Source of the DNA: Deltaproteobacteria bacterium
GTDB taxonomy: Bacteria > JAGRBM01 > JAHCIT01
Assembly (NCBI GenBank): GCA_026129095.1
Contig: JAHCIT010000003.1
Span: 248,001-312,000 of the forward strand
Direction: 5' to 3'
Length of the DNA stretch: 64,000 nucleotides
Within the stretch, counting starts at the first letter, position 1; each line of letters begins with the position of its first letter. This document shows positions 26,857 to 51,014 of the stretch, piece by piece. Under the pieces are notes generated by a model. It saw only the letters and a program-made list of their open reading frames with translations. It had not been told where the DNA came from and made no database searches. Made by a program: the position numbers and the translations under genes.

Positions 26857-27087
26857 TGGAGTTCGGCACCTGGCTGTCCGTACTGATCCTCGGCCCCGGC
26901 GCCGCCGGGATTTTCATCTGGTTTCTGGCCGATTTGCGGAAAATCCAGAGGGGTTCCGGCGAGGATTAACCAGCCAGATTTCCCGGCTGATTTCAAAACC
27001 TTGGCTAGCTTGTTGGCAGCCGCCAATTCATCGGCTAAAGACCGGCCGCCGGGGCTCTTTCCGGGGAGGAACCGTCTCACCGTGGAC

Positions 27088-27501
27088 ATGTACTACCAGT
27101 TTGGCCACGTACTGGTTTTTATCGCGCTGGGAGCGGGTTTCATCGCTATCGCGCTCACCGCGAGCCACCTGGTCGCCCCATCGAAACAGTCGGTCATCAA
27201 GCAAACTTCTTATGAATGCGGCGAACTTCCCATCGGGAACTCCTGGGCCCAGTTCAACGTCCGCTTCTATACTATCGCCATCGACTTCCTGATTTTCGAC
27301 GTGGAAGTAACCCTGCTCTATCCCACCGCCGCCGTATTCCGGAGCTGGGTCGAAAAGGGCTACGGACCGGCCCTTTTTGTATGGGTCGGAACATTCGTGG
27401 TCATTCTGGCCATCGGCCTCTTTTACGTGTGGGGCAAGGGCGACCTGAAGTGGGTGAAAGAGCTGGGCAGCACGGTGCCAAAACCGGGAACAAACCCTTA
27501 G
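27088..27501 (+). CDS. nuoA: Complex I subunit A (operon 1)
   Basis: YECGE, FYTIAIDFLIFDVE, WGKGDLKW. Alternative GTG start at 27082. Confidence 0.93.
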   Translation: MYYQFGHVLVFIALGAGFIAIALTASHLVAPSKQSVIKQTSYECGELPIGNSWAQFNVRFYTIAIDFLIFDVEVTLLYPTAAVFRSWVEKGYGPALFVWVGTFVVILAIGLFYVWGKGDLKWVKELGSTVPKPGTNP

Positions 27502-27576: not shown

Positions 27577-28107
27577 ATGACTGACACGAAAACCACAGTC
27601 GCCGTCCCCCAGACAATCGATACCAGCTACTACAGCCCCAAGGACGGCGGCATCATCACCGCCAATACCGACGACTTTCTCAACTGGGTCCGTGCGAACA
27701 GCATGTGGTACATGCTGTTCGGACTTGCCTGCTGCGCCATCGAACTGATGCAGACGGGCGGACCCCGCGCCGATCTCGACCGCTTCGGTGCCGTCTTCCG
27801 CGCCTCGCCGCGCCAGTCGGATCTCATCATCGTGGCCGGGACACTGACCTACAAGATGGCCAGCCGCGTGAAGATTCTCTACGACCAGATGCCCGAGCCG
27901 AAATACGTCATCTCGATGGGTTCCTGCTCCAACTGCGGTGGCCTGTTCGAACAGGGCTATTCGGTATGCAAGGGCGTGGACAAGATCATCCCGGTGGATG
28001 TCTACGTGCCCGGCTGCCCGCCGCGGCCCGAGGCACTCACCGAAGGAGTCATGAAGCTGCAGGAGATCGTCAAGCGTGAACGGTTCCTGCGCCGCAAGAC
28101 CGCCTGA
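27577..28107 (+). CDS. nuoB: Complex I subunit B (operon 1)
   Basis: [42 protein letters not shown]. Confidence 0.96.
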
Positions 28108-28152: not shown

Positions 28153-28773
28153 ATGGACAAGAAGTCGCTGCTCGAAATGGTGTCAGCAAGGTTTGGCGAC
28201 CGCATCGAGTGCGGTCCCGAAGCCAACCCGACGCCTTTCATTATCGTCAGGAACCCGCAGAAGGACCTGCTGGATATCGTCAAGACGCTGCGGGACGATT
28301 CCGGGTTCAGCTTCAAGTATCTGGCGACCGTCGCCGCCACCGATCACCCGCCCGTATCCGAGAAAAAGGGCGAACCGCCGCCCCCCGGTCCCGGACACCA
28401 GTTCTCGACGGCCGTGCTGAAGAGCTACGAACACGGCACGACGCTGATGGTGAAGGCAAAGCTCGATCGCAACAACCCGCATGTGCCATCGCTGGCGGGC
28501 CTCTACGGCGCCGCCATCTGGCATGAACGCGAGCAGTACGATCTTCTCGGCGTGATCTACGACGGGCACCCGGACCTGCGCCGGATCATGCTCCCGGACG
28601 ACTGGACCGGACACCCGCTCCGCAAGGACTGGACCGAGCAGGACAACTACCGCGGCATCCAGACGACCCGCGAATCGATGCACGACATCTTTGCCCGCCG
28701 CGTAAAGGAGACCGAGGGTTACGACTTCCGCCGTGGCGGCAGCGCCGCCGGCGAGGAGACAGCCGAATCATGA
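28153..28773 (+). CDS. nuoC: Complex I subunit C (operon 1)
   Basis: AIWHEREQYDLLG..YDGHPDLRRI.LPDDWTGHPLRKD. Confidence 0.95.
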   Translation: MDKKSLLEMVSARFGDRIECGPEANPTPFIIVRNPQKDLLDIVKTLRDDSGFSFKYLATVAATDHPPVSEKKGEPPPPGPGHQFSTAVLKSYEHGTTLMVKAKLDRNNPHVPSLAGLYGAAIWHEREQYDLLGVIYDGHPDLRRIMLPDDWTGHPLRKDWTEQDNYRGIQTTRESMHDIFARRVKETEGYDFRRGGSAAGEETAES

Positions 28774-29906
28774 GCAGCCTCGTTACCCAGCTCAAATCCG
28801 ACGAAATGCTCCTCAACATGGGGCCCCAGCACCCGTCTACCCACGGCGTGCTGCGCTTCATTCTCAAGACCGACGGCGAGATCGTGACGGCCTGCGAACC
28901 CGACGTGGGATTTCTGCACCGCTCGATCGAGAAGATCTGCGAAAAGTGCGACTACCCCGGTTTCATGCCGTATACCGACCGGGTGGACTACCTGGCCGCA
29001 ATGAACGCCAACCACGCCTATGCCCTGGCGGTCGAACGGCTTGCGGGGATCGAGGTGCCGCGCCGGGCACAGGTCATCCGCGTCATCACCGACGAACTGA
29101 ACCGCATCATCTGCCACGGCGCCATCGGCGTCGGCGCCCTTGGCATGGACCTCGGCGCCGCGACGCCGTTCCTCCACGCCATGCGCGAGCGGGAGACGGT
29201 GAACGACATCATCGAGGAACTGTGCGGCGCCCGGCTAACCTACAATTACGTCCGCATCGGCGGCGTCTGGTTCGATCTGCCCGACGGCTTTGTCGAAAAG
29301 GTCACGGCCTTCCTCAACCACTTCGAACTGGCATGGGAAGAGATCAACCGACTGCTTACCGATTCGGTAATCTTCCGCACCCGCCTGATGAACGTCGGCA
29401 CGATCACCGCCGGGGATGCCGTGAGCTATGGCCTCGTGGGACCGGTCCTGCGGGCGACCGGTATCAAGCGCGACGTCCGCCGGGACCAGCCCTACGCGAT
29501 CTACCCGGAACTGGAGTTCGACATTCCGGTGGGAACCGGCACGTTCGGAACGCTCGGCGACTGCTTTGACCGCCATCTGGTCCGCGTCGAGGAAGTGCGC
29601 CAGTCGGTCAAGATCGTCCGGCAGTGCCTGAAACTGCTGGAACCGGGACCGGTGATCGCCAAGGTGCCCAAAAACATCAAGCCGCCGGCCTGGGCCGATG
29701 TCTATTCGGCCGTCGAGGCGCCTCGCGGCGAGATGGGCTTCTATCTCATGTCCAACGGCACGGGAAAAGCCCACCGGTGCAAGATCCGCACGGGATCATT
29801 CGCGGCCATGAGCATCATCAGCAGGATGGCGCCGGGCATGATGATCGCAGACCTTGTGGCATTCATCGCGTCGCTGGACGTGGTGGCGCCCGAGATCGAC
29901 CGGTAA
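28770..29906 (+). CDS. nuoD: Complex I subunit D (operon 1; short 378-aa form)
   Basis: LNMGPQHPSTHGVLR, GFLHRSIEK, YTDRVDY, EAPRGE, EIDR; no Ni-binding CxxC motifs. Confidence 0.95.
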   Translation: MSSLVTQLKSDEMLLNMGPQHPSTHGVLRFILKTDGEIVTACEPDVGFLHRSIEKICEKCDYPGFMPYTDRVDYLAAMNANHAYALAVERLAGIEVPRRAQVIRVITDELNRIICHGAIGVGALGMDLGAATPFLHAMRERETVNDIIEELCGARLTYNYVRIGGVWFDLPDGFVEKVTAFLNHFELAWEEINRLLTDSVIFRTRLMNVGTITAGDAVSYGLVGPVLRATGIKRDVRRDQPYAIYPELEFDIPVGTGTFGTLGDCFDRHLVRVEEVRQSVKIVRQCLKLLEPGPVIAKVPKNIKPPAWADVYSAVEAPRGEMGFYLMSNGTGKAHRCKIRTGSFAAMSIISRMAPGMMIADLVAFIASLDVVAPEIDR

Positions 29907-29936: not shown

Positions 29937-31403
29937 ATGTTGCAGCAGATCGCAGACAAGTGGATAGCCGGGGAAGGACTTCTCGGCGGCGTATTCCAGG
30001 GAGCGAGCCCCTACCTCGTCTATTCCGTCACGATGCTGATTGGCGCCATCCTGGCGCTCGTTATCGCGGCACATCTGGCAGGCATCTATTCGTGGGCCGA
30101 GCGGCGCATCGCCGGGCGCATCCAGTCCCGCATCGGCCCCAACCGGGTCGGACCGCAGGGATTTCTCCAGTGGGCCGTGGACGGGCTCAAGACCTTCCAG
30201 AAGGAAGACCTGATTCCGCAGGACGCCGACTCCGTGATTTTCCGGATCGCGCCCTACCTATCGTTCTGCGGCATGTTCCTCGTATTCGTCGTACTCCCCT
30301 TCTCCAACACGCTGGTCGTGGCGGACCTCAATATCGGAATCGTCTACATCCTCGCCGTCAGTTCCATCGAAGTGCTGGGCGTGATGCTCGCCGGCTACGG
30401 ATCGAACTCCAAGTGGGCGTTTTATGGTGGCATGCGCTCGGCCGCCCAGCTCGTTTCCTACGAGATCCCGGTGGGGCTCGCCCTTCTGTCCATGGTTCTC
30501 CTGTCCGGATCGCTCAACCTGAACCAGATCGTGCTCTCACAGTCGCACGAGGGGTTCTTCCGGTCGATACTCGCGTGGAACTTCTTCGCGACGCCATTCG
30601 CGTTCATCGCCTTCTTCGCCTATTTCACGGCGGCCATTGCGGAGATCAACCGCGCTCCGTTCGACCTGCCCGAGGCCGAGAGCGAACTCGTCGCCGGTTT
30701 CTGCACCGAGTATTCCGGCATGCGGTTCCTGTTCTTCTTCTTTGCCGAGTGGGCCAACATCTTCGTGATCAGCATGATCGCCGTCGTCGTGTTCTTCGGC
30801 GGCTGGACGGTGCCCGGCGTGCATACCGCCGCCCAGTGGGAAGCGATCACGCCCTACATCATTTACGGGGCCCTCATCCTGACCGTGATAGGGGCCACCT
30901 GGGTCGGCTACCGGATGGGTGTCCGTGCCGACGAGCCCACACGGCTTACCAAGCCCACCGGCGATCTCGGGACGACGATCCTGGCCGTTGTGCTGGGCTG
31001 GGGGCCGGCCTTCACCGCCCTGGCCGTCCTGTCGCTGTTCATCGCCTTCGGGCTGCCGTCGGCCGCACCTGCGGTCATCAAGAACGCCGCCCAGTTCGGC
31101 GTCATCTTCATCAAGGCGCACATTCTCGTATTTCTGGTGATCCAGCTCCGCTGGACCGTGCCGCGCCTGCGTGTGGACCAGCTCATGATGCTCTGCTGGA
31201 AATACCTCATGCCCGTCACTTTCGTCTGTATCCTGGGCAACATGGCCTGGATTGCCTTTATCGACATGAATGGGACGGCCGCGAACCTGACACGCGTGGT
31301 ACTGTTCGCACTGACGAACCTGCTCATCCTGAAATACATCCTGATGGTGGTGCAGAACCTGCGTCACGCGAAAGCCAATTTCGACTTCAAGCTGGCCGTC
31401 TGA
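29937..31403 (+). CDS. nuoH: Complex I subunit H (operon 1; extended, 488 aa)
   Basis: ERRIAGRIQSRIGPNRVGP, MRSAAQLVSYE, NRAPFDLPEAESEL, RWTVPRLRVDQLM. Confidence 0.95.
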   Translation: MLQQIADKWIAGEGLLGGVFQGASPYLVYSVTMLIGAILALVIAAHLAGIYSWAERRIAGRIQSRIGPNRVGPQGFLQWAVDGLKTFQKEDLIPQDADSVIFRIAPYLSFCGMFLVFVVLPFSNTLVVADLNIGIVYILAVSSIEVLGVMLAGYGSNSKWAFYGGMRSAAQLVSYEIPVGLALLSMVLLSGSLNLNQIVLSQSHEGFFRSILAWNFFATPFAFIAFFAYFTAAIAEINRAPFDLPEAESELVAGFCTEYSGMRFLFFFFAEWANIFVISMIAVVVFFGGWTVPGVHTAAQWEAITPYIIYGALILTVIGATWVGYRMGVRADEPTRLTKPTGDLGTTILAVVLGWGPAFTALAVLSLFIAFGLPSAAPAVIKNAAQFGVIFIKAHILVFLVIQLRWTVPRLRVDQLMMLCWKYLMPVTFVCILGNMAWIAFIDMNGTAANLTRVVLFALTNLLILKYILMVVQNLRHAKANFDFKLAV

Positions 31404-31427: not shown

Positions 31428-32069
31428 ATGGAAGCACAGAAGCAGGAATACCACCCCGAACCGTTCTCAACGGGCTATTTTGCCGACATCTGGAACACCG
31501 CAAAGTCGCTGTTCTACGGCATGTCGAACACGATGAGCCACCTGTTCCGGGCTCCCAGCACCGTCCAGTACCCGGAAGTGGACGTGAAGGCGACGCTTCC
31601 CGACCGCTACCGCGGCTTCCTGACCGTGGACATGGACGTCTGCATCTCCTGCCGTAACTGCGAAAAGGCGTGCCCGATCGACTGCATCTGGATCGAGGAC
31701 GTCAAGCTCGACCGGGTTGATATCATTGGCAACAACGGCAAGCCGAGCAAGAAGATGCTCTACCCGGTCGTCTTCAATATCGACCTTGGCAAGTGCATGT
31801 ATTGCGGTCTTTGCACCGAACCCTGCCCCACTGACGCGATCCACTTCACCAAGGAGTTCGAGCGCGCCACGACGGATTTCCATAACCTGTATTTCGAATT
31901 CGTCTCGCCCGAAGAGCGCAAGGAAGTTCTCGCCAAGCGGGAAAAGTTCGAGGCCAAAGAGGCTGAAGCCAAGGCCAAAAAAGCGGCTGCGGCAGCCGCC
32001 GCTGCTGCTGCCAAGCCGGCTGAAACGGCGACTCCCGCCACCCCCCCGACAGAGCCCCCGAAGAGCTGA
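31428..32069 (+). CDS. nuoI: Complex I subunit I (2x[4Fe-4S]); the only nuoI in the window
   Basis: TVQYPE, RYRG, CISCRNCEKACP, CMYCGLCTEPCP; Lys/Ala/Pro-rich tail. Confidence 0.93.
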   Translation: MEAQKQEYHPEPFSTGYFADIWNTAKSLFYGMSNTMSHLFRAPSTVQYPEVDVKATLPDRYRGFLTVDMDVCISCRNCEKACPIDCIWIEDVKLDRVDIIGNNGKPSKKMLYPVVFNIDLGKCMYCGLCTEPCPTDAIHFTKEFERATTDFHNLYFEFVSPEERKEVLAKREKFEAKEAEAKAKKAAAAAAAAAAKPAETATPATPPTEPPKS

Positions 32070-32234: not shown

Positions 32235-32366
32235 AGGGAGGCCTCTAAGTGCTCGTTGCGTGGGCTGCATCGCGCCTTAGCTGCCGATTTCAATTGAGCT
32301 TTCCGGCAAATGGCCTTTTTAGGTGAGGCCCTCCGCCGGGGAAGGAATCGGGGAACTCAGGGGAAG

Positions 32367-32957
32367 ATGAAGAACAAGCTCATCGCGGGCCTCTCCGTCC
32401 TCGCTGCAATCGTCGCATCCAGCTTGCTGACCACCGGCGAGCACCCCTTTTTCCGGGCAGCGGCCGTGGCAACCGTGACCGGAGCCTTCGGCGTCATCCT
32501 TCTGCCGAATATCGTCCGGGCGGCACTGTGCCTGATGCTCACGTTTTTCGGCGTCGCCATCTTCTACGTCATGCTGGGGGCCGACCTGCTGGCGGCATTC
32601 CAGGTACTGGTCTATATCGGCGGCATCCTGGTGATGATCCTCTTCGCCGTCATGTTCACCCAGCGTCGCGGCGAGCAGAGCTACCTGAACCCATCCAAGG
32701 GGCCGCTCACCCTGATCGGATCGGCTGCGCTTTGCGGCGGCCTGTATTTCATCCTGCGCAGGATTATCGCCACCACCAGCTTCCCGGTGCGTCCCGAACG
32801 GCCGATCGGCTCGACGGTCCAGGCGATCGGCGACCACATCGTGACCAGTCACGTCATCCCCTTCGAGGTGATCGCCGTGCTGCTGCTCATGACCCTTGTG
32901 GGCACCGTCGTCCTGATCAAGAAAGAGATCAACGCCGAGGAGGACGCGCTCTCTTGA
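32367..32957 (+). CDS. nuoJ: Complex I subunit J (operon 1)
   Basis: AALCLMLTFFGVA..Y.MLGAD.LAAFQVLVYIGGI, IPFEVIAVLLL. ATG at 32367. Confidence 0.93.
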   Translation: MKNKLIAGLSVLAAIVASSLLTTGEHPFFRAAAVATVTGAFGVILLPNIVRAALCLMLTFFGVAIFYVMLGADLLAAFQVLVYIGGILVMILFAVMFTQRRGEQSYLNPSKGPLTLIGSAALCGGLYFILRRIIATTSFPVRPERPIGSTVQAIGDHIVTSHVIPFEVIAVLLLMTLVGTVVLIKKEINAEEDALS

Positions 32958-33265
32958 ACGAGGCGTTGCTCACCGACTACCTGAACCTCGCCGCCCTGCT
33001 GTTCTGCATGGGACTGTTCGCCATCATCTCCCGGCGGAACACCGTCGCCGTCCTGATGGGCGTGGAACTGATCCTGAACGCCGCGAACATCAACTTCATC
33101 GCATTCAGCCACTATGTCACCGGCCATGTGGATGGCCACATCTTTGCCGCATTTGTCATCATGCTGGCCGCGGCAGAAGCCGCCGTGGGCCTGGCAATCG
33201 TGCTGGTCGTTTACCGCAACTTCCGCAACATCAACATCGACTCGGTCAGCACGCTGCGCAACTAG
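32954..33265 (+). CDS. nuoK: Complex I subunit K (operon 1)
   Basis: RRN..AVLMGVELILNAANINF, LAAAEAAVGLAI. TTG start overlaps the nuoJ TGA; this is the C-terminal part of track ORF 32528..33265. Confidence 0.93.
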   Translation: MNEALLTDYLNLAALLFCMGLFAIISRRNTVAVLMGVELILNAANINFIAFSHYVTGHVDGHIFAAFVIMLAAAEAAVGLAIVLVVYRNFRNINIDSVSTLRN

Positions 33266-33289: not shown

Positions 33290-35620
33290 ATGAGTGATGC
33301 CGTCCACGCCGTAAAGCTCGCCGAAGCCGGCTACCTCTGGCTGGTGCCCGCCATTCCTGCGCTGGGTGCGGCAGTGCTCGCCCTGTTCGGACGGCGGCTG
33401 GAATACCCCGGCAAGGATGCGCCGCCCTGGGGCAACGACCCGGCCAGGTGGGACTGGCACGCCCATGACCATCACGGTCACGATTCCCCCGCCGGTCATG
33501 GGCATGATTCACATGGCAGCCATGGTCACGGCGATCATGGACATGGTGACCACGGGCACGATGACCACGATCACGGACACCACGGGCTCGCCCCCGGCCA
33601 GAGCCAGGGCGGGATGAACGTCGTCAATGCGATTGCCAACGCGGCGATCTGGATCCCGTTCCTGATCACCTGCTACGCGGCATTCCAGATTGCCACCCTG
33701 CCCGAAGGCGTCGTCGGCCTCCACAACCATCTCTACCAGTGGCTCTTCATCGGCAAGTTCTCGGCCGACATGGCTTTTGTCGCCGACCGCCTCTCGATTC
33801 TCCCCATGTTCCTCGTGACCGGCGTTGGCGGGCTCATCCACATCTATTCGATGGGATACATGGCCCACGACGAGAACCACTGGCGGTTCATGGCCTACCT
33901 GAACATGTTCTGCTGCGCGATGCTGCTGCTCGTGATGGGCGACAACCTGTTCATCATGTTCATCGGCTGGGAAGGCGTCGGACTGGCGAGCTACTGCCTC
34001 ATCGGCTTCTGGCACAAGGAGATGGCCAACGCGACCGCCGCCATCAAGGCGTTCGTCGTCAACCGCGTCGGCGACTTCTTCTTCGTGATTGGCGTCGCGC
34101 TCATCTGGTGGAACACCGGAACGCTCAACTTCTTCGAGATCAACGCCCAGGCGGGGAACCTCGCCCAGACTGCCGTCGGCGTCGGGGCCATGTCGGTGGC
34201 GACGCTTGCCACGCTCTGCCTGTTCGGCGCCGCGACCGGCAAATCGGCCCAGATTCCCCTCTACGTCTGGCTCCCCGACGCGATGGCCGGCCCGACTCCC
34301 GTCTCTGCGCTCATCCATGCCGCCACGATGGTGACCGCAGGCGTGTTCATGATCGGACGGCTCAACATGCTGTTTGCCGTATCGCCGGCGACGCTGACGG
34401 TGATCGCCATCGTTGCCACGGCGACGGCCTTCTTCAGTGCCACAATCGGCATCACGCAGTACGACATCAAGAAGGTGCTGGCCTACTCGACGGTCTCCCA
34501 GCTCGGCTTCATGTTCATGGGCATGGCGACCGGCGCCTTCTGGGCCGGCATCTTCCACCTGATGACCCACGCCTTCTTCAAGGCCTGCCTCTTCCTCGGC
34601 TCCGGTTCGGTCATCATGGGCAACCACCACGAACAGGACATGCGCAAATACGGCGGCCTGAAGCGTCTGATGCCCGTCACCTATGCGACCTTCGGCCTGG
34701 CGACGCTCGCCATCGCCGGTATCCCGCCCTTCGCCGGGTTCTTCTCCAAGGACGAAATCCTCCACAAGATGTGGGGCTCGCACCATTTCGGCTTCGGCCC
34801 TGAAATGCCGCTCCCGCATCTGGGCAAGATACTGTTCTTCGTGGGCCTTGCCGCCGCCGCCATGACCGCCTTCTACATGACGCGGCAGGTGTGCATGACC
34901 TTCTTCGGCGAGAACCGCGCCGATCCGAAGGTCCGCGACCACATCCACGAATCGCCGCGCAGCGTGACCATCCCACTGGTCGTGCTCGCATTCCTCTCCG
35001 TGTTTGGCGGTTTCCTTGGCTTCTTCTTCGTGCCGGGCTGGAACGTGCTGGAGCACTTCCTGGAGCCGGTCATGCCGGGCATGCACCACATCTGGGGCGA
35101 TTACCACGCCCATGCCGGCGAAGCGGTCCTGTTCGCCGTCATATCGGTGGCGGTAGCCGGAAGCTCGATTCTCGCCGCCCGGGCCATTTACACGAAGAAG
35201 CCCGAAACGGCCGACAATTTCGTCAGGAAGTTCCCCAACCTCCACAGCGTGGTTTACCGGAAATACCTCGTGGACGAGGGGTACGACGCCACGTTCGTTT
35301 CGGGAACGATGGGGCTTTCACGCCTGTCGGCATGGTTCGACAGCACGATCGTTGACGGACTGGTGAACCTTGCCGGCCGGCTGGTGCGGGGACTCCGCCA
35401 GGTCGCCGGATGGTTCGACCGGGTGGTTGTTGACAAGATTGGGGTTGAGGGGACCGCCTGGGTTAGCCAGACGTTTGGTTCCCTCTTCCGCCAGTTCCAG
35501 ACCGGACGCATCCAGACGTACATCGTCTTTGTGATGGCGTGCCTCATACTGGCACTGGCATTTCTGATCGCTGATTTCGGGCGCCTGATGACCACTGCGG
35601 TCTCGGGACCTGTGAACTGA
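33290..35620 (+). CDS. nuoL: Complex I subunit L (operon 1) with a His-rich insertion and a lengthened amphipathic helix
   Basis: GWEGVG, NRVGD, GKSAQIPL.VWLPDAMAGPTPVSALIHAATMV, HAFFKA, FFSKDEI. Confidence 0.96.
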   Translation: MSDAVHAVKLAEAGYLWLVPAIPALGAAVLALFGRRLEYPGKDAPPWGNDPARWDWHAHDHHGHDSPAGHGHDSHGSHGHGDHGHGDHGHDDHDHGHHGLAPGQSQGGMNVVNAIANAAIWIPFLITCYAAFQIATLPEGVVGLHNHLYQWLFIGKFSADMAFVADRLSILPMFLVTGVGGLIHIYSMGYMAHDENHWRFMAYLNMFCCAMLLLVMGDNLFIMFIGWEGVGLASYCLIGFWHKEMANATAAIKAFVVNRVGDFFFVIGVALIWWNTGTLNFFEINAQAGNLAQTAVGVGAMSVATLATLCLFGAATGKSAQIPLYVWLPDAMAGPTPVSALIHAATMVTAGVFMIGRLNMLFAVSPATLTVIAIVATATAFFSATIGITQYDIKKVLAYSTVSQLGFMFMGMATGAFWAGIFHLMTHAFFKACLFLGSGSVIMGNHHEQDMRKYGGLKRLMPVTYATFGLATLAIAGIPPFAGFFSKDEILHKMWGSHHFGFGPEMPLPHLGKILFFVGLAAAAMTAFYMTRQVCMTFFGENRADPKVRDHIHESPRSVTIPLVVLAFLSVFGGFLGFFFVPGWNVLEHFLEPVMPGMHHIWGDYHAHAGEAVLFAVISVAVAGSSILAARAIYTKKPETADNFVRKFPNLHSVVYRKYLVDEGYDATFVSGTMGLSRLSAWFDSTIVDGLVNLAGRLVRGLRQVAGWFDRVVVDKIGVEGTAWVSQTFGSLFRQFQTGRIQTYIVFVMACLILALAFLIADFGRLMTTAVSGPVN

Positions 35621-35646: not shown

Positions 35647-37161
35647 ATGGTACCAGCAAACGTCCTATCCATCATCACGTTCTTGCCGCTCGTGGGAGCG
35701 CTTGTCGTGCTCTGCATCCCATCCTCACAGCGTGACGCGATCCGCTATACGGCAGTCCTCGCGACCGCCGTGCCGTTCCTGCTCACGCTGATGATGCTGC
35801 CGTCGTTCAATCCTGGCGCCGGCACCAATGTGCGCGAAGGGCTCCAGTTCATCGAGAACTACGCATGGATCACCACCTACGGCATCCGCTACCACGTTGG
35901 CGTGGACGGGCTTTCCATGCCGCTCGTGGTCCTGACCGGACTTGTCGCCCTGTTCTCGGTCATCGCCTCATGGGGTATCACCAAGGCGATCAAGGCCTAC
36001 TTTGCACTCCTGCTGTTCCTCACGACCGGAATGTATGGCGTTTTCGTCGCCCTCGACTTCTTCCTGTTCTACGTGTTCTGGGAAGTGATGCTGCTGCCGA
36101 TGTATTTCCTCATCGGCATCTGGGGCGGTCCACGCAAGGAATACGCCGCCATCAAGTTCTTCCTGTATACGCTGGCCGGCTCGGTACTGATGCTGCTGGC
36201 GCTCATCGCCCTGTATCTCCAGAGTTCCCCCAACACCTTCGACCTCCTGGAACTGATGGCCCAGCACAAGTCGTTCACCCGGAACTTCAGCGCCTTCGGC
36301 TACATCGTTCCGCTGAGCAAGGTGCTGTTCGTCGGGCTTTTCATCGGATTTGCCATCAAGGTTCCCTGCTTCCCGTTCCATACATGGCTTCCCGACGCCC
36401 ACGTCGAGGCGCCAACCCCGGTATCGGTCATCCTGGCCGCCGTGCTGCTGAAGATGGGCACCTACGGCATCATGCGCATCTGCCTGCCGCTCCTTCCGGA
36501 TGCCGCCCTGTGGTTTGCTCCCACGCTGGCCCTGCTGGGCGTCATCAACATCGTCTACGGCGCCCTGTGCGCCATGGCACAGACGGACATGAAGAAACTC
36601 GTGGCGTATTCGTCGGTCTCCCACATGGGTTACTGCCTCCTCGCCATTGCCGCCTCCAACGAGATGGGACTCACGGCCGCGTCGTTCCAGATGTTCTCCC
36701 ACGGAATCGTCAGCGCCCAGCTCTTCCTCCTCGTCGGCGTCATCTATGACCGAGCCCACCACCGTCAGATTGACGGTTTCGGCGGCATCGCCCAGCAGAT
36801 GCCGGTCTACACGGCGTTCGCCGGACTGGCGTTCTTTGCCAACCTCGGACTTCCCGGCCTGATCGGCTTCCCCGGCGAGGCGCTCACTTTCCTGAGCGCG
36901 TTCAAGCCCTTCATGGGATACACCGTGATCGCCATTACCGGTGTCATCCTGACGGCTGCGTTCTGCCTCTGGATGCTCCAGCGGGTATTCCTGGGCCCGA
37001 AGAACCCCAAATACGATACCCTTCCGGAGATCACCCTCCGGGAGAAGCTCACGCTGGTACCGTTTGCGGTGCTGACCATCCTGTTTGGTTTCTATCCGGC
37101 GCCGCTCTTCAAGCTGATGAACCCGGCCATGGTGAACCTGGCCTCCTGGCTCCGCCCCTAA
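35647..37161 (+). CDS. nuoM: Complex I subunit M (operon 1)
   Basis: GVDGLS, FWEVML, IKVP.FPFHTWLPDAHVEAP, LLKMG, FPGE. Confidence 0.96.
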   Translation: MVPANVLSIITFLPLVGALVVLCIPSSQRDAIRYTAVLATAVPFLLTLMMLPSFNPGAGTNVREGLQFIENYAWITTYGIRYHVGVDGLSMPLVVLTGLVALFSVIASWGITKAIKAYFALLLFLTTGMYGVFVALDFFLFYVFWEVMLLPMYFLIGIWGGPRKEYAAIKFFLYTLAGSVLMLLALIALYLQSSPNTFDLLELMAQHKSFTRNFSAFGYIVPLSKVLFVGLFIGFAIKVPCFPFHTWLPDAHVEAPTPVSVILAAVLLKMGTYGIMRICLPLLPDAALWFAPTLALLGVINIVYGALCAMAQTDMKKLVAYSSVSHMGYCLLAIAASNEMGLTAASFQMFSHGIVSAQLFLLVGVIYDRAHHRQIDGFGGIAQQMPVYTAFAGLAFFANLGLPGLIGFPGEALTFLSAFKPFMGYTVIAITGVILTAAFCLWMLQRVFLGPKNPKYDTLPEITLREKLTLVPFAVLTILFGFYPAPLFKLMNPAMVNLASWLRP

Positions 37162-38943: not shown

Positions 38944-39450
38944 GTGCGGATGGATTTACGGGTAGACTACATCCCGGTCCTCATTCTCCTCGGTATCTCC
39001 ACCGTTTTCGTGACCGTCTTTGTCGCCGTGCTCCCCTGGCTTGCCCGCAAGAGCGGCGTCCGGGTCCATGCCCCGAACCTCGAAAAGACATCCACCTACG
39101 AATGCGGTGTCAACCCGACAAGCCCCGCCCGCAGCCGCTATTCGGTCCACTTCTACATGGTGGCCATTGTGTTCATCCTGTTCGATCTGGAAGCGATCTT
39201 CCTGTATCCGTGGGCAGCCCAGTACCGGGCGCTCGTCAGGGAGTTCGGCGGAATTGTGTTTCTGGAAGCAGCCCTGTTCGTGGGGATACTGTTCGTCGGC
39301 TTCTTCTATGTCCTGAGCAAGGGCGTCCTCGAATGGTCCGACCGGGCCACATCCGAGGAAGCTCGCCGGGAACTGCTCGCCAGGGATCCGCGCATCGTTC
39401 CGCTTGATCCGCCGGGCCGGCCCGCTGCCGCGAAGCAGGAGGCCGCCTGA
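38944..39450 (+). CDS. nuoA: Complex I subunit A (operon 2)
   Basis: TYECGV, FYMVAIVFILFDLE, KGVLEW plus a C-terminal extension. Alternative ATG at 38950. Confidence 0.93.
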   Translation: MRMDLRVDYIPVLILLGISTVFVTVFVAVLPWLARKSGVRVHAPNLEKTSTYECGVNPTSPARSRYSVHFYMVAIVFILFDLEAIFLYPWAAQYRALVREFGGIVFLEAALFVGILFVGFFYVLSKGVLEWSDRATSEEARRELLARDPRIVPLDPPGRPAAAKQEAA

Positions 39451-39454
39451 GGTC

Positions 39455-40042
39455 ATGGGATCACTGCTCAATCCCGGGCACAAGCCGCTTCCCGCTGGTG
39501 TCACGCCGGCCCAGGAAGGCGATGAAAGCTACATGCTCTCCCGGCTTGCGGATGTCGTGAACTGGGGCCGCAAATATTCCCTGTGGCCCTACCCGTTCGG
39601 GACAGCCTGTTGCGGTATCGAGATGATGGCTGTCCTTGGCGGCCGGTTCGACCTCTCCCGCTATGGCGCCGAACTGGTCCGGTTTTCGCCCCGGCAGGCG
39701 GACATGATGATCGTGGCCGGGACCATCAGCATCAAGATGGCCCCAATCATCAAGAAAATATACGACCAGATGGCCGAGCCCAGATGGGTGGTATCGATGG
39801 GAGCATGCGCCTCTTCCGGCGGCTTCTACAACAACTACTGCACCCTTCAGGGGGTGGACGAAGTGATCCCCGTGGATGTCTACGTGCCCGGCTGCCCGCC
39901 GCATCCCCAGGCATTGCTGCACAGCGTGATGGCCCTGCAGGACAAGATCGCCTCCGGCAATACATTCGAGCGGGGACGCAAGCAGATTCTCATTGAAGGC
40001 CTGGCCGATGTCCCCGCACGGCCCCCGATGGTCATGCGGTGA
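39455..40042 (+). CDS. nuoB: Complex I subunit B (operon 2)
   Basis: [32 protein letters not shown]. Confidence 0.95.
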   Translation: MGSLLNPGHKPLPAGVTPAQEGDESYMLSRLADVVNWGRKYSLWPYPFGTACCGIEMMAVLGGRFDLSRYGAELVRFSPRQADMMIVAGTISIKMAPIIKKIYDQMAEPRWVVSMGACASSGGFYNNYCTLQGVDEVIPVDVYVPGCPPHPQALLHSVMALQDKIASGNTFERGRKQILIEGLADVPARPPMVMR

Positions 40043-40073
40043 GAGAGATACCTGAAAGGAAGAACCGGCAGCC

Positions 40074-40577
40074 TTGAGCACAGTCGAGCGCATCCGCAGC
40101 CTGCTTCAGGGCCGCATCACCGGCGAAAGCACTGCCGCTGACGGCCTGGTCGTGCCGGTTCTCGATCCGGCGGCCATTGTGGACGCGGCCCGTTCCCTGC
40201 GCGACGATCTGGGCTTTTCGGTGCTGCTCGATATCGTCGGCATTGATTTCAGCGGCTACGATCCCAAGAGCCCCCGGTTTGGCGCAGACTACCTGTTCCT
40301 GAATCCGGAAAAGATCGAGCGCGTGCGGCTTCAGGTCCGGGTACCGGAGTCGAGTCCGGTCATCCCTTCGCTGGTCCGCCTGTACCGCTCGGCCAACTGG
40401 CTGGAACGCGAAGCCTTCGACCAGTTCGGCATCCGGTTCGACGGTCATCCGGATCTCCGCCGCATTCTCAATCATGTGGAGTTCACCGGGCACCCGCTCC
40501 GCAAGGACTACCCGGTGGACGGCCGCCAGCCCCTCAGCCGCGCCGACTCCCTCGAACTCGACAAGGGGGGGTTCTAG
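40074..40577 (+). CDS. nuoC: Complex I subunit C (operon 2)
   Basis: ANWLEREAFDQFGIRFDGHPDLRRIL....GHPLRKDYP. Confidence 0.93.
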   Translation: MSTVERIRSLLQGRITGESTAADGLVVPVLDPAAIVDAARSLRDDLGFSVLLDIVGIDFSGYDPKSPRFGADYLFLNPEKIERVRLQVRVPESSPVIPSLVRLYRSANWLEREAFDQFGIRFDGHPDLRRILNHVEFTGHPLRKDYPVDGRQPLSRADSLELDKGGF

Positions 40578-40581
40578 CGCC

Positions 40582-41802
40582 GTGCCGACGCCCATCTCCG
40601 ATACCGCCAGGAACACCGGCTACCAGCTCGACCCGATCGATAATCTGGTCGAAGTGAACATCGGTCCAGCCCATCCGGCCACCCACGGCACCCTTCGTGC
40701 CAAGTGCCTGCTGGATGGCGAGGTCATCGTCCGGGCCATTCCCGAAATCGGCTACCTGCACCGGGGCTTCGAGAAGATGTCGGAGAACGTCACCTACAAC
40801 CAGGTGGTGCCCTATACCGACCGGCTGAACTACCTGTCGGCTCCGATGAACAACACGGGTTACGCCAAGGCCGTGGAAGCCCTGTTTGGCATCCAGATCC
40901 CGGACCGCGCCGTCTATATCCGTGTGATCGTCGATGAGCTGTCGCGGATCATGGATCACCTCGTCTGCAACTCTGTGGCGGCGATGGACCTGGGCGGACT
41001 TACCAACTTCTGGTACGGTGTCTATCCGCGCGAACGGATTTACGACATCCTCGTCAAGCTCACCGGGGCGCGGCTCACCAACAGCTATACCCGCGTGGGC
41101 GGTGTCATCCACGATATTTACGACGGATTTGAGGCCGACCTTGAGAATGCGCTCAGGGAAGTGGACCGTTCCCTTGTCGTGATGATGAAGCTCCTCAAGC
41201 GGAACCGAATCTTCAACGACCGTATCCGGGACGTGGGCGTCATCCCCAGGGAGATGGCCCTCTCTTATGGTTTTACCGGCCCGCTGCTGCGTGCGAGCGG
41301 CGTCCCCTACGATGTCCGCAAGGATTTTCCCTACTACCACTACGACGAATTCGATTTCGACGTGCCAATCGGCGAAAAGGGCGACTGCTGGGACCGCTTC
41401 TTCGTCCGCATGGAGGAGATCCACCAGTCGGTCCGCATACTCCGGCAGGCGGTCGCCCGCATACCGGACGGCCCCATCCGCATCCAGGATCCCCGCATCA
41501 CCCCGCCCCCCAAGAACGAGGTTTACAACAACATCGAGGCGCTGATTAACCACTTCAAGCTGGTGTTCGAGGGGATCAGGCCGCCCAGGGGCCACGTCTA
41601 TTCATCCACCGAGTGCGCCAACGGCGAGGTCGGTTACACGATCTATTCCGACGGCACCAAGAACGCCTACCGCGTCAAGGTACGTTCGCCCTCGTTTGCC
41701 GCCTTCAGTGCATTTGCGGAAATCGTCACCGGGCACTACATCGCCGATGCGATTGCGGTCCTCGGATCGCTCAACATCATCGCCGGGGAGCTGGATCGCT
41801 GA
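40582..41802 (+). CDS. nuoD: Complex I subunit D (operon 2)
   Basis: NIGPAHPATHGTLR, GYLHRGFEK, YTDRLNY, IEALINHFK, GELDR. GTG start at 40582. Confidence 0.94.
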   Translation: MPTPISDTARNTGYQLDPIDNLVEVNIGPAHPATHGTLRAKCLLDGEVIVRAIPEIGYLHRGFEKMSENVTYNQVVPYTDRLNYLSAPMNNTGYAKAVEALFGIQIPDRAVYIRVIVDELSRIMDHLVCNSVAAMDLGGLTNFWYGVYPRERIYDILVKLTGARLTNSYTRVGGVIHDIYDGFEADLENALREVDRSLVVMMKLLKRNRIFNDRIRDVGVIPREMALSYGFTGPLLRASGVPYDVRKDFPYYHYDEFDFDVPIGEKGDCWDRFFVRMEEIHQSVRILRQAVARIPDGPIRIQDPRITPPPKNEVYNNIEALINHFKLVFEGIRPPRGHVYSSTECANGEVGYTIYSDGTKNAYRVKVRSPSFAAFSAFAEIVTGHYIADAIAVLGSLNIIAGELDR

Positions 41803-41803
41803 G

Positions 41804-42289
41804 ATGTCTGACGCCCTGTTTTCAGATGAAACCCTGCGGCAGATGAAGTCCGCCATCGAGGAATACCCGAGCAGGGCATCCGCCATCCTGCCGGTGCTCC
41901 AGCTCGCCCAGAAGGAAAAAGGCTGGATCAGCCCCGAGACGATCCGCTTCGCCTCTGAACTGGTCGGGGTTCCTGAATCCCGGGTCGTCGAATGCGTCAC
42001 CTTCTACACGATGTTCAACCAGCAGCCGGTCGGGAAATACGAGATCAACGTCTGCACGAACATCAGTTGTGCCCTCGTTGGCGGCGAGGAAATCTACGGC
42101 CACTTCTGCAAGAAGCTCGGCCTGAAGAACAACGAGACGACGAAAGACGGCCTGTTCACCGTCCGGCACGTCGAATGTCTTGCCTCCTGCGGATCGGGAC
42201 CGATGGCGCTTGTGAACGACGAATACATTGAGCACCTCACCACCGAGAAAGTGGACCAGCTCATCGAGGAGTGGCGCCGCAAGGGCTGA
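41804..42289 (+). CDS. nuoE: Complex I subunit E ([2Fe-2S])
   Basis: TFYTMF, CTNISC...CLASC. Confidence 0.95.
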   Translation: MSDALFSDETLRQMKSAIEEYPSRASAILPVLQLAQKEKGWISPETIRFASELVGVPESRVVECVTFYTMFNQQPVGKYEINVCTNISCALVGGEEIYGHFCKKLGLKNNETTKDGLFTVRHVECLASCGSGPMALVNDEYIEHLTTEKVDQLIEEWRRKG

Positions 42290-42292
42290 GCG

Positions 42293-43555: not shown

Positions 43556-43556
43556 G

Positions 43557-45146: not shown

Positions 45147-45164
45147 GCCCGGACTGGGAACCGA

Positions 45165-46463: not shown

Positions 46464-46475
46464 GGAGTCTCCAGC

Positions 46476-46976
46476 ATGATTGACCTCCTCTTCTGGATAT
46501 TCAGCGGCGCAGCCATCGGCTCGGCCGTGCTCGTTGTGACACTCAAGGACCCCGTCCAGTCGGTCATGTCGCTTGTCATCACCTTCTTTTCGCTCGCGGC
46601 CATTTTCGTCCTGCTGGACGCCCACTTCCTCGCAGCCGCCCAGATCATCGTCTACGCGGGCGCGATTCTGGTGCTGGTCACGTTCGTCATCATGCTTCTG
46701 GACCTGCGGGCCGGAGACATCACAGGACCCACCCGGATGGTTGCGGGCCGGTTCCTGGGCGTCGGAGCCGCTGCCGCCCTGTTCATGGCCCTCTGGTCCC
46801 GCGTGGTCCAGGCGAATCTGGACCGGTTCCCGGAGCTCACCGAGGGACACGGCACGGTCGAGCGCATCGCACGGGTGATTCTCATCGACAACATACTGCC
46901 CTTCGAGACAGTCTCCGTTCTTCTCCTCGTGGCGACCGTCGGCGCCGTCTGGATCGCACGCCGGGAGGACACCTGA
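46476..46976 (+). CDS. nuoJ: Complex I subunit J (operon 2)
   Basis: LDAHFLAAAQIIVYAGAI..L..FVIMLL, LPFETVSVLLL. Confidence 0.94.
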   Translation: MIDLLFWIFSGAAIGSAVLVVTLKDPVQSVMSLVITFFSLAAIFVLLDAHFLAAAQIIVYAGAILVLVTFVIMLLDLRAGDITGPTRMVAGRFLGVGAAAALFMALWSRVVQANLDRFPELTEGHGTVERIARVILIDNILPFETVSVLLLVATVGAVWIARREDT

Positions 46977-47290: not shown

Positions 47291-47294
47291 ACCC

Positions 47295-49382
47295 ATGCAA
47301 GCTGCCGCCCAGATAGCTGCCATACCGGTCCGGGAAGTCTCCTGGCTTCTGCTTGTTCCGCTGCTCCCGCTGGCAGGAGCCGCCTGGAATGGCCTTTCGA
47401 TCCTGTTCAAGGCCGACATTTCCGACGAAAGCGCCTCCCGGATCGCCTGTGGGGCCGTGGGACTCGCTTTCGCGCTGTCGCTGGCGGCCTGGCTGCAGAT
47501 CCTGCTCGCCCCCGGACCCGTCGCGCTTTCCCAGCAGGTTTTCACCTGGATGGAGCTTGGCGGACTCAAGATCGACTTCTCGCTCGTCGCCGACCGGATG
47601 AGCGTGCTGATGCTGCTCATTATCACCGGCGTCGGTTCCCTCATTCACGTCTATTCGACCGGCTACATGCATGGCGACCCCGGTTACCGGCGGTTTTTCA
47701 CCTACCTCAATCTCTTCGTGTTCTTCATGCTGGTTCTCGTGCTGGGGAGCTCGCTACCGGTGCTGTTCGTCGGCTGGGAAGGCGTCGGCCTCTGCTCCTA
47801 CCTCCTGATCGGGTTCTGGTACGAACACATGCCGAACTCGGATGCCGGGAAAAAGGCCTTTATCGTCAACCGGGTGGGCGACCTTGGGTTTCTCCTCGGC
47901 ATGTTCACGCTCGTTTATGCCGTCTCGCAGGCTGGCGTTCCCACACTGGAGATCGCCGCCCTGAAGGAACGGCTGCCGGAAATCCTGAAGGTCAGCATCC
48001 ACCTGTTCGGCATCGAGTTCCGCGCCGTGACGCTGGCCTGCCTGCTTCTTTTTATCGGCGCCACCGGAAAGTCCGCCCAGATCCCCCTCTATGTCTGGCT
48101 TCCGGATGCCATGGCCGGCCCGACGCCGGTCTCCGCCCTGATCCATGCGGCAACGATGGTGACGGCCGGTGTGTACATGGTTGCCCGGCTTTCGCCGCTG
48201 TTCCAGGCAAGTCCGGTCACCATGACCGTGATCGCCGTCGTCGGGGGGCTCACCGCCTTCTTCGCCGCGACGATCGCACTGGTCCAGAACGACATCAAGA
48301 AGGTTCTGGCCTATTCCACGGTTTCCCAGCTCGGCTACATGTTTTTGGGCCTCGGGTCCGGCGTCATGTGGGCTTCCATGTTCCACCTGATGACCCATGC
48401 GTTTTTCAAGGCCTGCCTGTTCCTCGGCGCTGGCTCGGTGATTCTCGGCATGCACCACGAGCAGGACATGCGGAAAATGGGCGGGCTCAAGAAATACATG
48501 CCCGTCACGCGCTGGACCTTCCTGCTGGCGACGCTGGCTATCGCCGGATTTCCGCTGACCTCCGGTTTCTTCTCGAAGGACGCCATCCTCTACGGTGCGT
48601 TCAATGCCCACTTCTACCTGCCCGGCCAGACGCTCGGGGCCGTGGCCCATGCCCTCCCCTGGTTCCTGTCAGGCCTGGGCCTCCTGACCGCCCTGCTGAC
48701 GGCGTTCTACATGGGCCGCTGCTATTTCCTCACCTTCGAGGGCGAATGCCGGGCCGATCACCACACGCAGGAACATATCCACGAGTCCCCCGCCTCCATG
48801 ACGAGCGCACTGGGAATACTTGCGTTCCTGTCAATCACGGCCGGGTTCCTGGGTATCCCCCACCTCTGGCACTGGGCGCCGAACGCGATGGAAGGCTGGC
48901 TCGCCCCCCTGCTGGCCGCCGATCCGCGGGTGCCGGGGATCGAGGAAAGCCTCGGACACTTCTTCCCCGTCTGGGAACACATTGAGCACACGCTGTCAGG
49001 CGAACTGGCCTTTACGGCACTGGCCGCCGGTCTGGGCCTTCTGGGCCTTTTCGCCGCCCGCGATCTCTACCTGCCCAAAGCCGACATACCGGCGCAGGCG
49101 GAAGCTGCGCTGCCGCGGGTTCACCGCTGGCTCTCGGACAAGTATTACGTGGATGAACTGTACGACCGGATGATCGTGACGCCGGTCAAGCAGGTATCGG
49201 AGTTCTTCCTGTGGAAGTTTATCGACGTCCGGCTGATCGATGGCCTCGTTAACCTTTTGGCTGACCTGTCCCGCTGGACAGGCCGGCAGATCGGCCGGCT
49301 CCAGAACGGCATTGCCGCACAGTATACCGCCATCATGCTGGCCGGGGCGTTTGCGCTCATTCTGTACCTGTCGGGGAGATGA
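47295..49382 (+). CDS. nuoL: Complex I subunit L (operon 2; canonical helix length)
   Basis: GWEGVG, GKSAQ, HAFFKA, FFSKD. Confidence 0.96.
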   Translation: MQAAAQIAAIPVREVSWLLLVPLLPLAGAAWNGLSILFKADISDESASRIACGAVGLAFALSLAAWLQILLAPGPVALSQQVFTWMELGGLKIDFSLVADRMSVLMLLIITGVGSLIHVYSTGYMHGDPGYRRFFTYLNLFVFFMLVLVLGSSLPVLFVGWEGVGLCSYLLIGFWYEHMPNSDAGKKAFIVNRVGDLGFLLGMFTLVYAVSQAGVPTLEIAALKERLPEILKVSIHLFGIEFRAVTLACLLLFIGATGKSAQIPLYVWLPDAMAGPTPVSALIHAATMVTAGVYMVARLSPLFQASPVTMTVIAVVGGLTAFFAATIALVQNDIKKVLAYSTVSQLGYMFLGLGSGVMWASMFHLMTHAFFKACLFLGAGSVILGMHHEQDMRKMGGLKKYMPVTRWTFLLATLAIAGFPLTSGFFSKDAILYGAFNAHFYLPGQTLGAVAHALPWFLSGLGLLTALLTAFYMGRCYFLTFEGECRADHHTQEHIHESPASMTSALGILAFLSITAGFLGIPHLWHWAPNAMEGWLAPLLAADPRVPGIEESLGHFFPVWEHIEHTLSGELAFTALAAGLGLLGLFAARDLYLPKADIPAQAEAALPRVHRWLSDKYYVDELYDRMIVTPVKQVSEFFLWKFIDVRLIDGLVNLLADLSRWTGRQIGRLQNGIAAQYTAIMLAGAFALILYLSGR

Positions 49383-49388
49383 TTGACG

Positions 49389-51014
49389 ATGGGTATACTC
49401 ACCACGCTGCTTGTTGTGCCGGTCATCGGGGCCATTACGGTCGCGGTGCTCGGCAAGCTGTTCGACGACCAGACCCCTGCCCGGCTCGCCGGACTGTGGT
49501 TTGCCGCGGCGGAGTTCGTGCTCTCCCTTTACCTCTGGTGGGCCTTCAGCCCGGCCGCGGCCGGAATGCAGTTCGTTGAAAGCTACCACTGGATCGAACC
49601 CTACGGGATCAAATACCTGGTCGGCATTGACGGGCTCTCGCTCCTGCTCGTCATTCTCACGACATTCCTTGTCCCGCTGATCCTGCTCTCGGCATGGAGC
49701 GCCGTGGATCGCCGACCGGCCGGGTATTTCGCCTCGATGCTGCTCCTGGAGGCGGGAATGCTCGGCGCGTTCTTCGCCCAGGATATCTTCCTTTTCTACG
49801 TCTTCTGGGAAGTGATGCTGGTCCCTATGTACCTGCTCATCGGGATCTGGGGAGGCGAACGCCGCCTGTACGCGGCCGTGAAGTTTTTCCTTTACACGAT
49901 GGCCGGTTCGGTCCTCATGCTGCTCGCCATCCTTGCCACTGTCTATCTCTACTACCAGTCAGCCGGGAAAGTGACCTTCGAACTGGCTGCCCTCGCCGGC
50001 CAGCAGCTCCCCCTTTCAACCCAGCGCTGGCTGTTTGCCGCCTATGCCCTGGCGTTTGCCATCAAGGTGCCGATCTTTCCGCTCCACACCTGGCTCCCCG
50101 ACGCGCACGTCGAGGCCCCCACGGGCGGTTCGGTCATTCTGGCCGGAATACTGCTGAAACTCGGCACTTACGGCTTCCTCCGCTACGCCATGCCGCTCTA
50201 CCCCGCCGCCGCGCTGGAAGCTGCCCCCTATTTCATGGCGCTTGCCGTGGCAGGCATCATCTACGGCGCCCTCGTTGCGCTGGTTCAGCCGGATATCAAG
50301 AAGCTCGTCGCCTATTCGTCCGTATCGCACCTTGGTTTCGTCGTACTGGGCATTTTTGCCTTCACCGAAGCCGCTACCTCCGGTGCCATCTACCAGATGC
50401 TGAACCACGGCATTTCGACCGGAATGCTCTTTTTCCTTGTGGGCGTGGTCTACGAGCGCCGCCATACCCGGCTGATCCGCGACTATGGGGGCCTCGCGAA
50501 GGTGATACCGGTCTATTCATTCCTCCTGATCGTGGCGACGATGGCATCGGTCGGACTGCCCGGAACAAACGGTTTCGTGGGCGAATTCTCCATCCTGTAC
50601 GGCACATTCATCTCCCGGATGGCGGGAGCCAAGGCCGCCACCGCCCTTGCCGCCACGGGCGTGATCCTCGGCGCCGTTTACATGCTGTGGATGGTCCAGC
50701 GGGTTCTCTACGGCCCTGTAACCAGCGTGGAAAACCAGAAACTCAAGGACGTAAACGGCCGCGAACTGGCTTATCTCGTTCCGCTGGCCATTCTCATCGT
50801 CCTCATGGGGGTATATCCCAAACCCTTCATGAATACGTTCAAAAACGCATCCAGGGAACACCTCGCCCGGTTTTCAAAGGTGAGCGTGCTGGCAACACTG
50901 CCCGCCAGCGATCTGGACGGCCGGGAAATCATCACCGCCAGGTTCGCCGCTGACGACGATGCGGCAGGCCGCACACAGGTTGCCCTGCAACAGGAAACCG
51001 GAGGCCGCCCATGA
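49389..51014 (+). CDS. nuoM: Complex I subunit M (operon 2)
   Basis: GIDGLS, FWEVML, IKVPIFPLHTWLPDAH, LLKLG, FVGEF. ATG at 49389 (TTG at 49383 is an alternative). Confidence 0.96.
   Translation: MGILTTLLVVPVIGAITVAVLGKLFDDQTPARLAGLWFAAAEFVLSLYLWWAFSPAAAGMQFVESYHWIEPYGIKYLVGIDGLSLLLVILTTFLVPLILLSAWSAVDRRPAGYFASMLLLEAGMLGAFFAQDIFLFYVFWEVMLVPMYLLIGIWGGERRLYAAVKFFLYTMAGSVLMLLAILATVYLYYQSAGKVTFELAALAGQQLPLSTQRWLFAAYALAFAIKVPIFPLHTWLPDAHVEAPTGGSVILAGILLKLGTYGFLRYAMPLYPAAALEAAPYFMALAVAGIIYGALVALVQPDIKKLVAYSSVSHLGFVVLGIFAFTEAATSGAIYQMLNHGISTGMLFFLVGVVYERRHTRLIRDYGGLAKVIPVYSFLLIVATMASVGLPGTNGFVGEFSILYGTFISRMAGAKAATALAATGVILGAVYMLWMVQRVLYGPVTSVENQKLKDVNGRELAYLVPLAILIVLMGVYPKPFMNTFKNASREHLARFSKVSVLATLPASDLDGREIITARFAADDDAAGRTQVALQQETGGRP

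Follow-up and report, generated by a model that had tools for sequence, protein, structure and literature searches.

We report that NuoL1, the NuoL subunit of respiratory complex I encoded by the first of two nuo operons in a window of 64,000 nucleotides (nt) from the genome of a Deltaproteobacteria bacterium (assembly GCA_026129095.1, contig JAHCIT010000003.1, positions 248,001 to 312,000), belongs, as an ordinary member, to a very widespread family in which NuoL with a long lateral helix (HL) stands beside a single nuoM gene, and that this state is not the result of local gene loss. By the window we mean this whole stretch of DNA. Published work takes the HL insertion as the mark by which a fourth proton pump, and with it 2M complex I, is recognised, and as such it enters energetics arguments for nitrite, manganese and ammonia oxidisers. 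If long-HL NuoL proteins mostly lie beside one nuoM, either this mark has been misread, or a four-pump enzyme made from three genes is common and has been overlooked; either outcome bears on the proton-to-electron stoichiometry that is inferred from genomes. The reading that we favour, with a probability of about 0.4, is that HL is a ruler, the extra module of which provides the docking site for another copy of the same NuoM.

NuoL1 is assigned to NuoL because it exceeds the cut-offs of both curated NuoL models (Table 1) and contains the antiporter-like core, transmembrane helix 15 (TM15), the lateral helix and TM16; its Pfam domains are Proton_antipo_N, _M and _C. The HL stretch spans 81 amino acids (aa), from Y659 to G739, versus 56 aa from YYVDE to QNG in NuoL2 of the second operon (hand count, with which the alignment agrees). 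The surplus consists of a 26-aa unit repeated in tandem, the two units being WFDSTIVDGLVNLAGRLVRGLRQVAG and WFDRVVVDKIGVEGTAWVSQTFGSLF, and the 9-mer TGGTTCGAC, coding for W-F-D at the unit heads, is present at 35333 and 35411, 78 nt apart. In all of this the initial annotation of the window, which was made from the DNA letters, had been correct. Only 29 of the 78 bases are identical between the two 78-nt units; thus the duplication is old, and the shared 9-mer mirrors conserved residues and no recent copying. Both copies hold the consensus FDxxV(I/V)DGxVN across 90 single-nuoM relatives, D684, D689, V692 and D710 do not vary among 118 aligned homologues, and D710, D715, G716, V719 and N720 of copy 2 are near-invariant in these 118 sequences. 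Hence, because the consensus is held in both copies and residues are invariant among homologues, the repeat stands above chance. In NuoL1 itself copy 1 is intact, and copy 2 retains WFD and VD and has DK.GV for DG.VN.

To place the insert, we aligned NuoL1, NuoL2 and twelve relatives with the product of E. coli K-12 nuoL (annotated record). D662 of YLVDE aligns with E. coli D542, and L-I-D of the duplicated motif FxDxxLIDGxVN aligns with E. coli P564-L565-N566, which lie in the HL kink and, according to Belevich et al. 2011 (PMC3274701), are the residues closest to NuoM in the structure 3RKO. The insertion is thus inside the lateral helix, where it had been placed from the letters. The spacing of copy 1 is canonical, with 22 residues from D662 to D684 and 21 from D542 to D563 in E. 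coli, and copy 2 follows 26 residues after copy 1. The insert is one 26-aa module, the size given for 2M enzymes by Yu et al. 2022 and Mundinger et al. 2019 where they describe these enzymes, again in agreement with the initial annotation. Solved NuoL and NdhF chains have one module copy, which can be aligned to either half of the NuoL1 repeat. NuoL1 was modelled with AlphaFold2 from an alignment of 118 sequences; the model had a predicted local distance difference test score (pLDDT) of 84.4, and its helices 609-636, 638-737 and 741-760 match TM15, the lateral helix and TM16, the HL stretch being modelled as helices 658-706 and 714-737 and followed by TM16. The model matched the mycobacterial NuoL chain 8e9g_L with a Z score of 50.9 and a root-mean-square deviation of 3.2 over 593 residues. 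In the structural alignment to solved NuoL, ND5 and NdhF chains, the matched range is 13 to 709-717 in the model and 1 to 588-594 in E. coli, with model residues 710-715 matching E. coli 588-594, and among the 50 alignment rows listed none extends past model residue 717 or reaches the model TM16. Because the match ends at 709-717, copy 2 begins where TM16 starts in the solved enzymes. The extension would then run straight, a direction that we infer from the alignment ranges only.

Operon 1 has the gene order nuoABCDHIJKLMN with a single nuoM, and nuoE, nuoF and nuoG were not found in it by Pfam (nuoA1 was identified by BLASTP). Its nuoL-nuoM and nuoM-nuoN gaps, 26 and 53 nt, hold no second nuoM, as had been noted before. 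This combination of a long HL and one nuoM had been regarded as exceptional, and the insertion had been taken to mark a fourth pump gene. Among stored protein homologues (n=136), the HL span, measured by a motif rule that is unreliable with variant end motifs, was 79-85 aa in 122, not measurable in 14 and 54-56 aa in none; source names among them are Candidatus Kryptonia, Binatia, Kapaibacterium, Deltaproteobacteria and Bdellovibrionota. A sample of 401 genomes with 275 family codes was searched with the C-terminal 137 aa as query, the context was taken for each listed match covering both copies, loci were annotated by BLASTP against the Nuo proteins of the window, and the HL span was counted from alignments. 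Counts are among the matches listed, with 43 weak matches outside. A long HL (79-84 aa) was found in 93 NuoL proteins in 93 of the 401 diverse genomes, and the span was 79-82 aa in 92 of these and 84 aa in the remaining one. Excluded from the 93 (G, L and C numbers are our handles for genomes, loci and contigs) were contig-end partial NuoL in G213 (L125, both copies visible), G006 (L143) and G244 (L091, nothing annotated), as well as L142 (G307, not NuoL), L145 (a duplicate of L042), L146 (Mrp-like) and L141. The order L-M(n)-N is complete in 81 long-HL operons; 78 of them have one nuoM, and three have two (G075, G383 and G237, with HL spans of 80, 80 and 84, a length class that includes the 81 aa of NuoL1). 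The locus is therefore not exceptional, and the insertion is not valid as a rule for a fourth pump gene.

Nearly all members of the long-HL family are encoded in nuoABCDHIJKLMN operons that lack nuoEFG and have a single nuoM. Where at least six upstream genes were visible, nuoEFG was absent from 68 long-HL operons and present in 1, too little being visible in 24; the classed operons comprise 68 with long HL and no nuoEFG, 4 with long HL and nuoEFG, 10 with short HL and nuoEFG, and 1 with short HL and no nuoEFG. Short-HL operons (54-56 aa), which are an incidental collection (n=16), all have one nuoM, and 10 have nuoEFG. A search for related loci gave only 3. Trees of NuoL and NuoM were made with FastTree only and contain no named Nitrospira sequences, and the NuoM tree was rooted on NuoN. 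In both trees the three two-nuoM operons cluster as a clade apart, with NuoL1 and NuoM1 elsewhere, and NuoM1 groups with NuoM of other long-HL one-nuoM operons. It had also been proposed that NuoL1 belongs to a 2M complex that lost one M. Because the one-nuoM state is found in 4 of 4 same-order relatives, and so across the order, and in many unrelated families, a recent loss is not supported; an ancient loss survives as an improbable case, which is weighed below.

Several loci of the sample differ in detail from this pattern. Intermediate HL spans of 70-71 aa are present in L043 (G017) and L135 (G186), each beside one nuoM. In G038 the long-HL operon (L042, on contig C8) stops after nuoM, and the sole nuoN is found alone on C5 (L144); eight further long-HL operons have no nuoN right after nuoM. 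Apparent fusion frames of 1188, 983 and 1318 aa were rejected as artefacts of open-ended open reading frames.

In the reading that we favour, which the initial annotation had named among its options as two copies of NuoM1, each FDxxV(I/V)DGxVN module would dock one NuoM-type protomer, and TM16 would keep the anchorage on NuoN that it has in solved enzymes. The single nuoM1 product would fill both M places of an L-M-M-N arm, which would have four antiporter-like modules, probably with five versus four protons per two electrons; an enzyme without the NADH module may use a lower-potential donor. A more general form, which we put forward tentatively, is that the number of 26-residue HL modules, rather than the nuoM gene count, sets the number of NuoM protomers per arm. 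The position and identity of the insert speak for a second NuoM, since it doubles the motif that contacts NuoM in E. coli. So does its length: if an HL of about 80 aa spans L-M-M-N in the two-nuoM operons, an HL of equal length in other operons has room for one more M. The raw association of long HL with the loss of nuoEFG, the six genomes with only three PF00361 genes (named below) and the lack of a recurrent extra gene beside the operons also count in favour. Moreover, every type of contact that would be needed, module on M and TM16 on N, already exists in canonical enzymes. Comparison of copy 1 with copy 2 in 90 one-nuoM NuoL proteins gave a mean of 4.7 of 12 core identities and a mean BLOSUM score of 21.9, versus a degenerate copy 2 in the three two-nuoM operons (2, 3 and 3 of 12; scores of 3, 9 and 4), and this difference fits two like partners in the former and two unlike partners in the latter. 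At the QxGxxxxY junction before TM16, Q, G and Y are found in 95%, 100% and 95% of long forms (n=93) and in 81%, 100% and 93% of short forms (n=16), and this equal conservation fits an unchanged TM16 partner. If the docking of a second NuoM is true, a complex I with four pumps would be encoded by only three pump genes in about a quarter of bacterial genomes, which we state with reserve. Equally provisional is the corollary that the known two-nuoM enzymes would have arisen afterwards, when diverged paralogues came to occupy the two identical places.

Several points weigh against this reading. The degeneracy of copy 2 is effectively one event because the three two-nuoM operons form one clade; 13 of the 90 one-nuoM NuoL proteins are equally low, with at most 3 of 12 identities between the copies; and copy 2 in the window's own order is partly degenerate (4 of 12, score of 15). 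The junction motif may be kept for reasons of its own. On supported branches the association of HL length with nuoEFG comes down to 2 independent contrasts (median p of 0.5), a comparison that has no power. The pLDDT of the model is only 58-75 across the extension (residues 701-740), and the extension, as modelled, may fold back. The stoichiometry of two M per arm is a proposal from sequence and unproven, and we know of no case of one gene filling two unlike positions in complex I. A complex prediction with two NuoM1 copies (residues 1-498, alignment of 49 rows) gave a score of 0.00 where the mark is 0.42, with controls not run, and speaks neither for nor against the pairing.

The main rival, which we regard as doubtful, keeps three pumps (L-M-N) and makes HL a longer brace, in which copy 2 would lie on NuoN, at the counterpart of the NuoM contact site, and TM16 would be shifted one period (~37 Å) further, beside NuoK, NuoJ and NuoA; the extra module would give stability or coupling and no added pump. 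Gene content is in its favour, as 78 of the 81 complete long-HL operons have one nuoM and six genomes that are at least 93% complete (G038, G083, G108, G238, G246 and G377; all first-look candidates were scored) combine a long-HL NuoL with exactly three PF00361 genes. NuoN is a NuoM homologue and could present a like surface, and according to Table 2 of Belevich et al. 2011 (PMC3274701) the E. coli HL tolerates insertions of 6-7 residues at several sites. Furthermore, at least eight changes of HL state were counted on a FastTree tree made without the HL columns (12-15 with shuffled labels) at a constant number of nuoM, which is consistent with such a brace, the count being soft. The brace would, however, need two new contacts at once, the module on NuoN and TM16 on NuoK, NuoJ and NuoA, yet the module consensus and the junction are canonical. 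Because HL length is equal in the two-nuoM operons, the docking places of TM16 would also differ between close relatives, and the link to the loss of nuoEFG would be explained only by shared descent. We therefore rank the docking of a second NuoM first and the longer brace as its main rival, neither of them being established.

An ancestral enzyme with two NuoM, from which a deep 'Mb' type was lost so that the long helix was left as a partnerless overhang, is improbable. The NuoN-adjacent NuoM of the two-nuoM operons forms a clade basal to all NuoM (support of 1.0, and of 0.854 for the rest), which makes the later loss of an old paralogue conceivable; the NuoL-adjacent NuoM of the same operons is nested among one-nuoM sequences (0.978 and 0.963). 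The basal place may, however, be due to long-branch attraction in a FastTree-only tree, and a span of 79-82 aa in 92 of 93 proteins together with the near-invariant residues of copy 2 is unlike a functionless overhang.

Filling of the fourth place in complex 1 by NuoM2 or by an MrpD-like protein encoded on contig C1, as the initial annotation had suggested for NuoM2, is very unlikely even within the window's genome. The tandem arrangement, in which operon 1 is directly followed by the nuoEFG-containing operon 2, is kept across the window's order, in G001, G002 and G005 (L034, L035 and L037), and this as well as the divergent copy 2 in the window's order would suit a partner from next door. NuoM2, however, groups with NuoM of short-HL 14-subunit operons, apart from the extra NuoM of the two-nuoM operons. 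Moreover, since the six genomes named above have a long HL and only three PF00361 genes, a paralogue in trans cannot be the general answer. The antiporter-like genes of the window's genome (23 contigs, 96.65% complete) are the six nuoL, nuoM and nuoN genes of the window and one Mrp-like pair, and no orphan nuoM was found in it. An unrelated, unlinked membrane protein under the second module has no direct support and is just as hard to credit, as one antiporter width leaves about 14 helices to fill and no recurrent extra gene was found within 2.5 kb of the operons, where the largest non-nuo family occurs in 5 of 92 loci.

Positions of the features are collected in Table 1. Both operons are on the + strand, arranged head to tail. 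In operon 2, nuoI was not found, and only 12 nt (46463-46476) separate the end of nuoH2 from nuoJ2. Operon 1 has its own nuoI, and the genome has only one further NuoI-like match (G000:C1:395825-396097), which at 99 bits falls short of the cut-off and is inside a 745-aa open frame on contig C1, ~15 kb from the Mrp-like genes. NuoH1 has 488 aa versus about 320-420 in most relatives, and the long form is also present in G001 and G002 of the same family; an insert in NuoN1 (549 aa) splits its Pfam match in two, likewise in G001 and G002. Between the first two helices of NuoL1 there is a loop of ~64 aa that is rich in His, Asp and Gly and has HGHD runs (33410-33600, residues ~41-104). It is disordered in the model, with pLDDT below 50 at residues 49-53, 58-90 and 92-97, and it is conserved in kind in 4 of 4 same-order relatives, with 14-18 His per 40-aa stretch; several other long-HL NuoL proteins have His-rich loops before TM15.

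Table 1. Coordinates of NuoL1, its lateral-helix elements and the other antiporter-related and nuo features (window positions unless a contig is given)
Feature	Position (nt)	Strand	Basis or remark
nuoL1, 776 aa, long-HL form	33290..35620	+	NCBIfam NF005141 653.8 bits (cut-off 556), TIGR01974 647.6 bits (cut-off 407.5)
Lateral-helix stretch YLVDE to QTG, 81 aa, residues 659-739	35264..35506	+	frame translation, alignment
HL module copy 1, residues 682-707, WFDSTIVDGLVN...	35333..35410	+	canonical spacing from YLVDE; consensus
HL module copy 2, residues 708-733, WFDRVVVDKIGVEG...	35411..35488	+	partly degenerate in the window's order (DG.VN to DK.GV)
TM16 anchor helix, residues 741-760, after QTGxxxxY junction	35510..35569	+	model helix
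nuoA1	frame 27001-27501, true start probably later	+	BLASTP to NuoA2, 42% over 85 aa
nuoB1	27577-28107	+	Pfam
nuoC1	28153-28773	+	Pfam
nuoD1	28770-29906	+	Pfam
nuoH1	29937-31403	+	Pfam
nuoI1	31428-32069	+	Pfam
nuoJ1	32310-32957	+	Pfam
nuoK1	about 32960-33265	+	Pfam
nuoM1, 504 aa, sole nuoM of operon 1	35647..37161	+	TIGR01972 589.7 bits (over its cut-off)
nuoN1, 549 aa	37215..38864	+	TIGR01770 358.1 bits (cut-off 332.6)
Operon 2: A, B, C, D, E, F, G, H, J, K, L2, M2, N2	38944-52504	+	Pfam
nuoL2, canonical 56-aa span	47295..49382	+	Pfam, NCBIfam, alignment
nuoM2, 543 aa, proposed trans partner	49383..51014	+	47% identity to NuoM1
MrpA-like (783 aa) and MrpD-like (504 aa) pair, locus L146	G000:C1:410937-414986		only antiporter-like genes outside the window

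The window's locus belongs to a known kind, and beyond another family member with a conserved His/Asp-rich loop it contributes nothing; the puzzle of what sits beneath the second module, which the whole family shares, is real. The canonical NuoL, Nqo12, ND5 and NdhF chains (3RKO, 4HE8, 8E9G and 6HUM) share with NuoL1 the fold over residues 13-715 (Z scores of 46-51), the HL start motif, the QxG junction and TM16, whereas the solved chains have one module and NuoL1 has two, and the model TM16 is not superposed on theirs. The idea of 2M complex I is credited to Chadwick, Hemp, Fischer and Orphan 2018 (ISME J 12:2668, as cited in PMC9040806, PMC6606698, PMC7117926 and PMC7300363), and was taken up, in the sections that deal with complex I, by Mundinger et al. 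2019, Aylward and Santoro 2020, a Chloroflexi paper of the Brazelton group and Yu et al. 2022. As described there, 2M complex I resembles operon 1 in its lengthened NuoL with an HL insertion of ~26 aa, and the Nitrospira-type cluster does so in its separate nuoC and nuoD and its lack of the NADH module, but the defining second nuoM is missing in operon 1. The three two-nuoM operons of our sample are like NuoL1 in their HL span of 80-84 aa, whereas NuoL1 and NuoM1 are outside their tree clade. In green complex I of rhizobia and in Complex_I_3 of Ca. Manganitrophaceae, as discussed in PMC9040806, the number of antiporter-like subunits is not three and HL length is described as matching it; these clusters carry extra MrpD-like or NuoM genes, unlike operon 1.

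The closest precedent is in the same report of Yu et al. 2022 (PMC9040806), according to which Complex_I_1 and Complex_I_2 of Ca. Manganitrophaceae have a 26-aa HL insertion in NuoL in clusters that are canonical in gene content and order; its authors deem the insertion curious and, in their account of it, leave the capacity for an extra subunit open. A literature search covering few subscription journals found a long helix beside one nuoM described only in this paper. Like NuoL1, these two complexes have the HL insertion without an extra pump gene. Their description concerns one family of another lineage, whereas the long HL is found here in 93 of 401 diverse genomes, among the matches listed.

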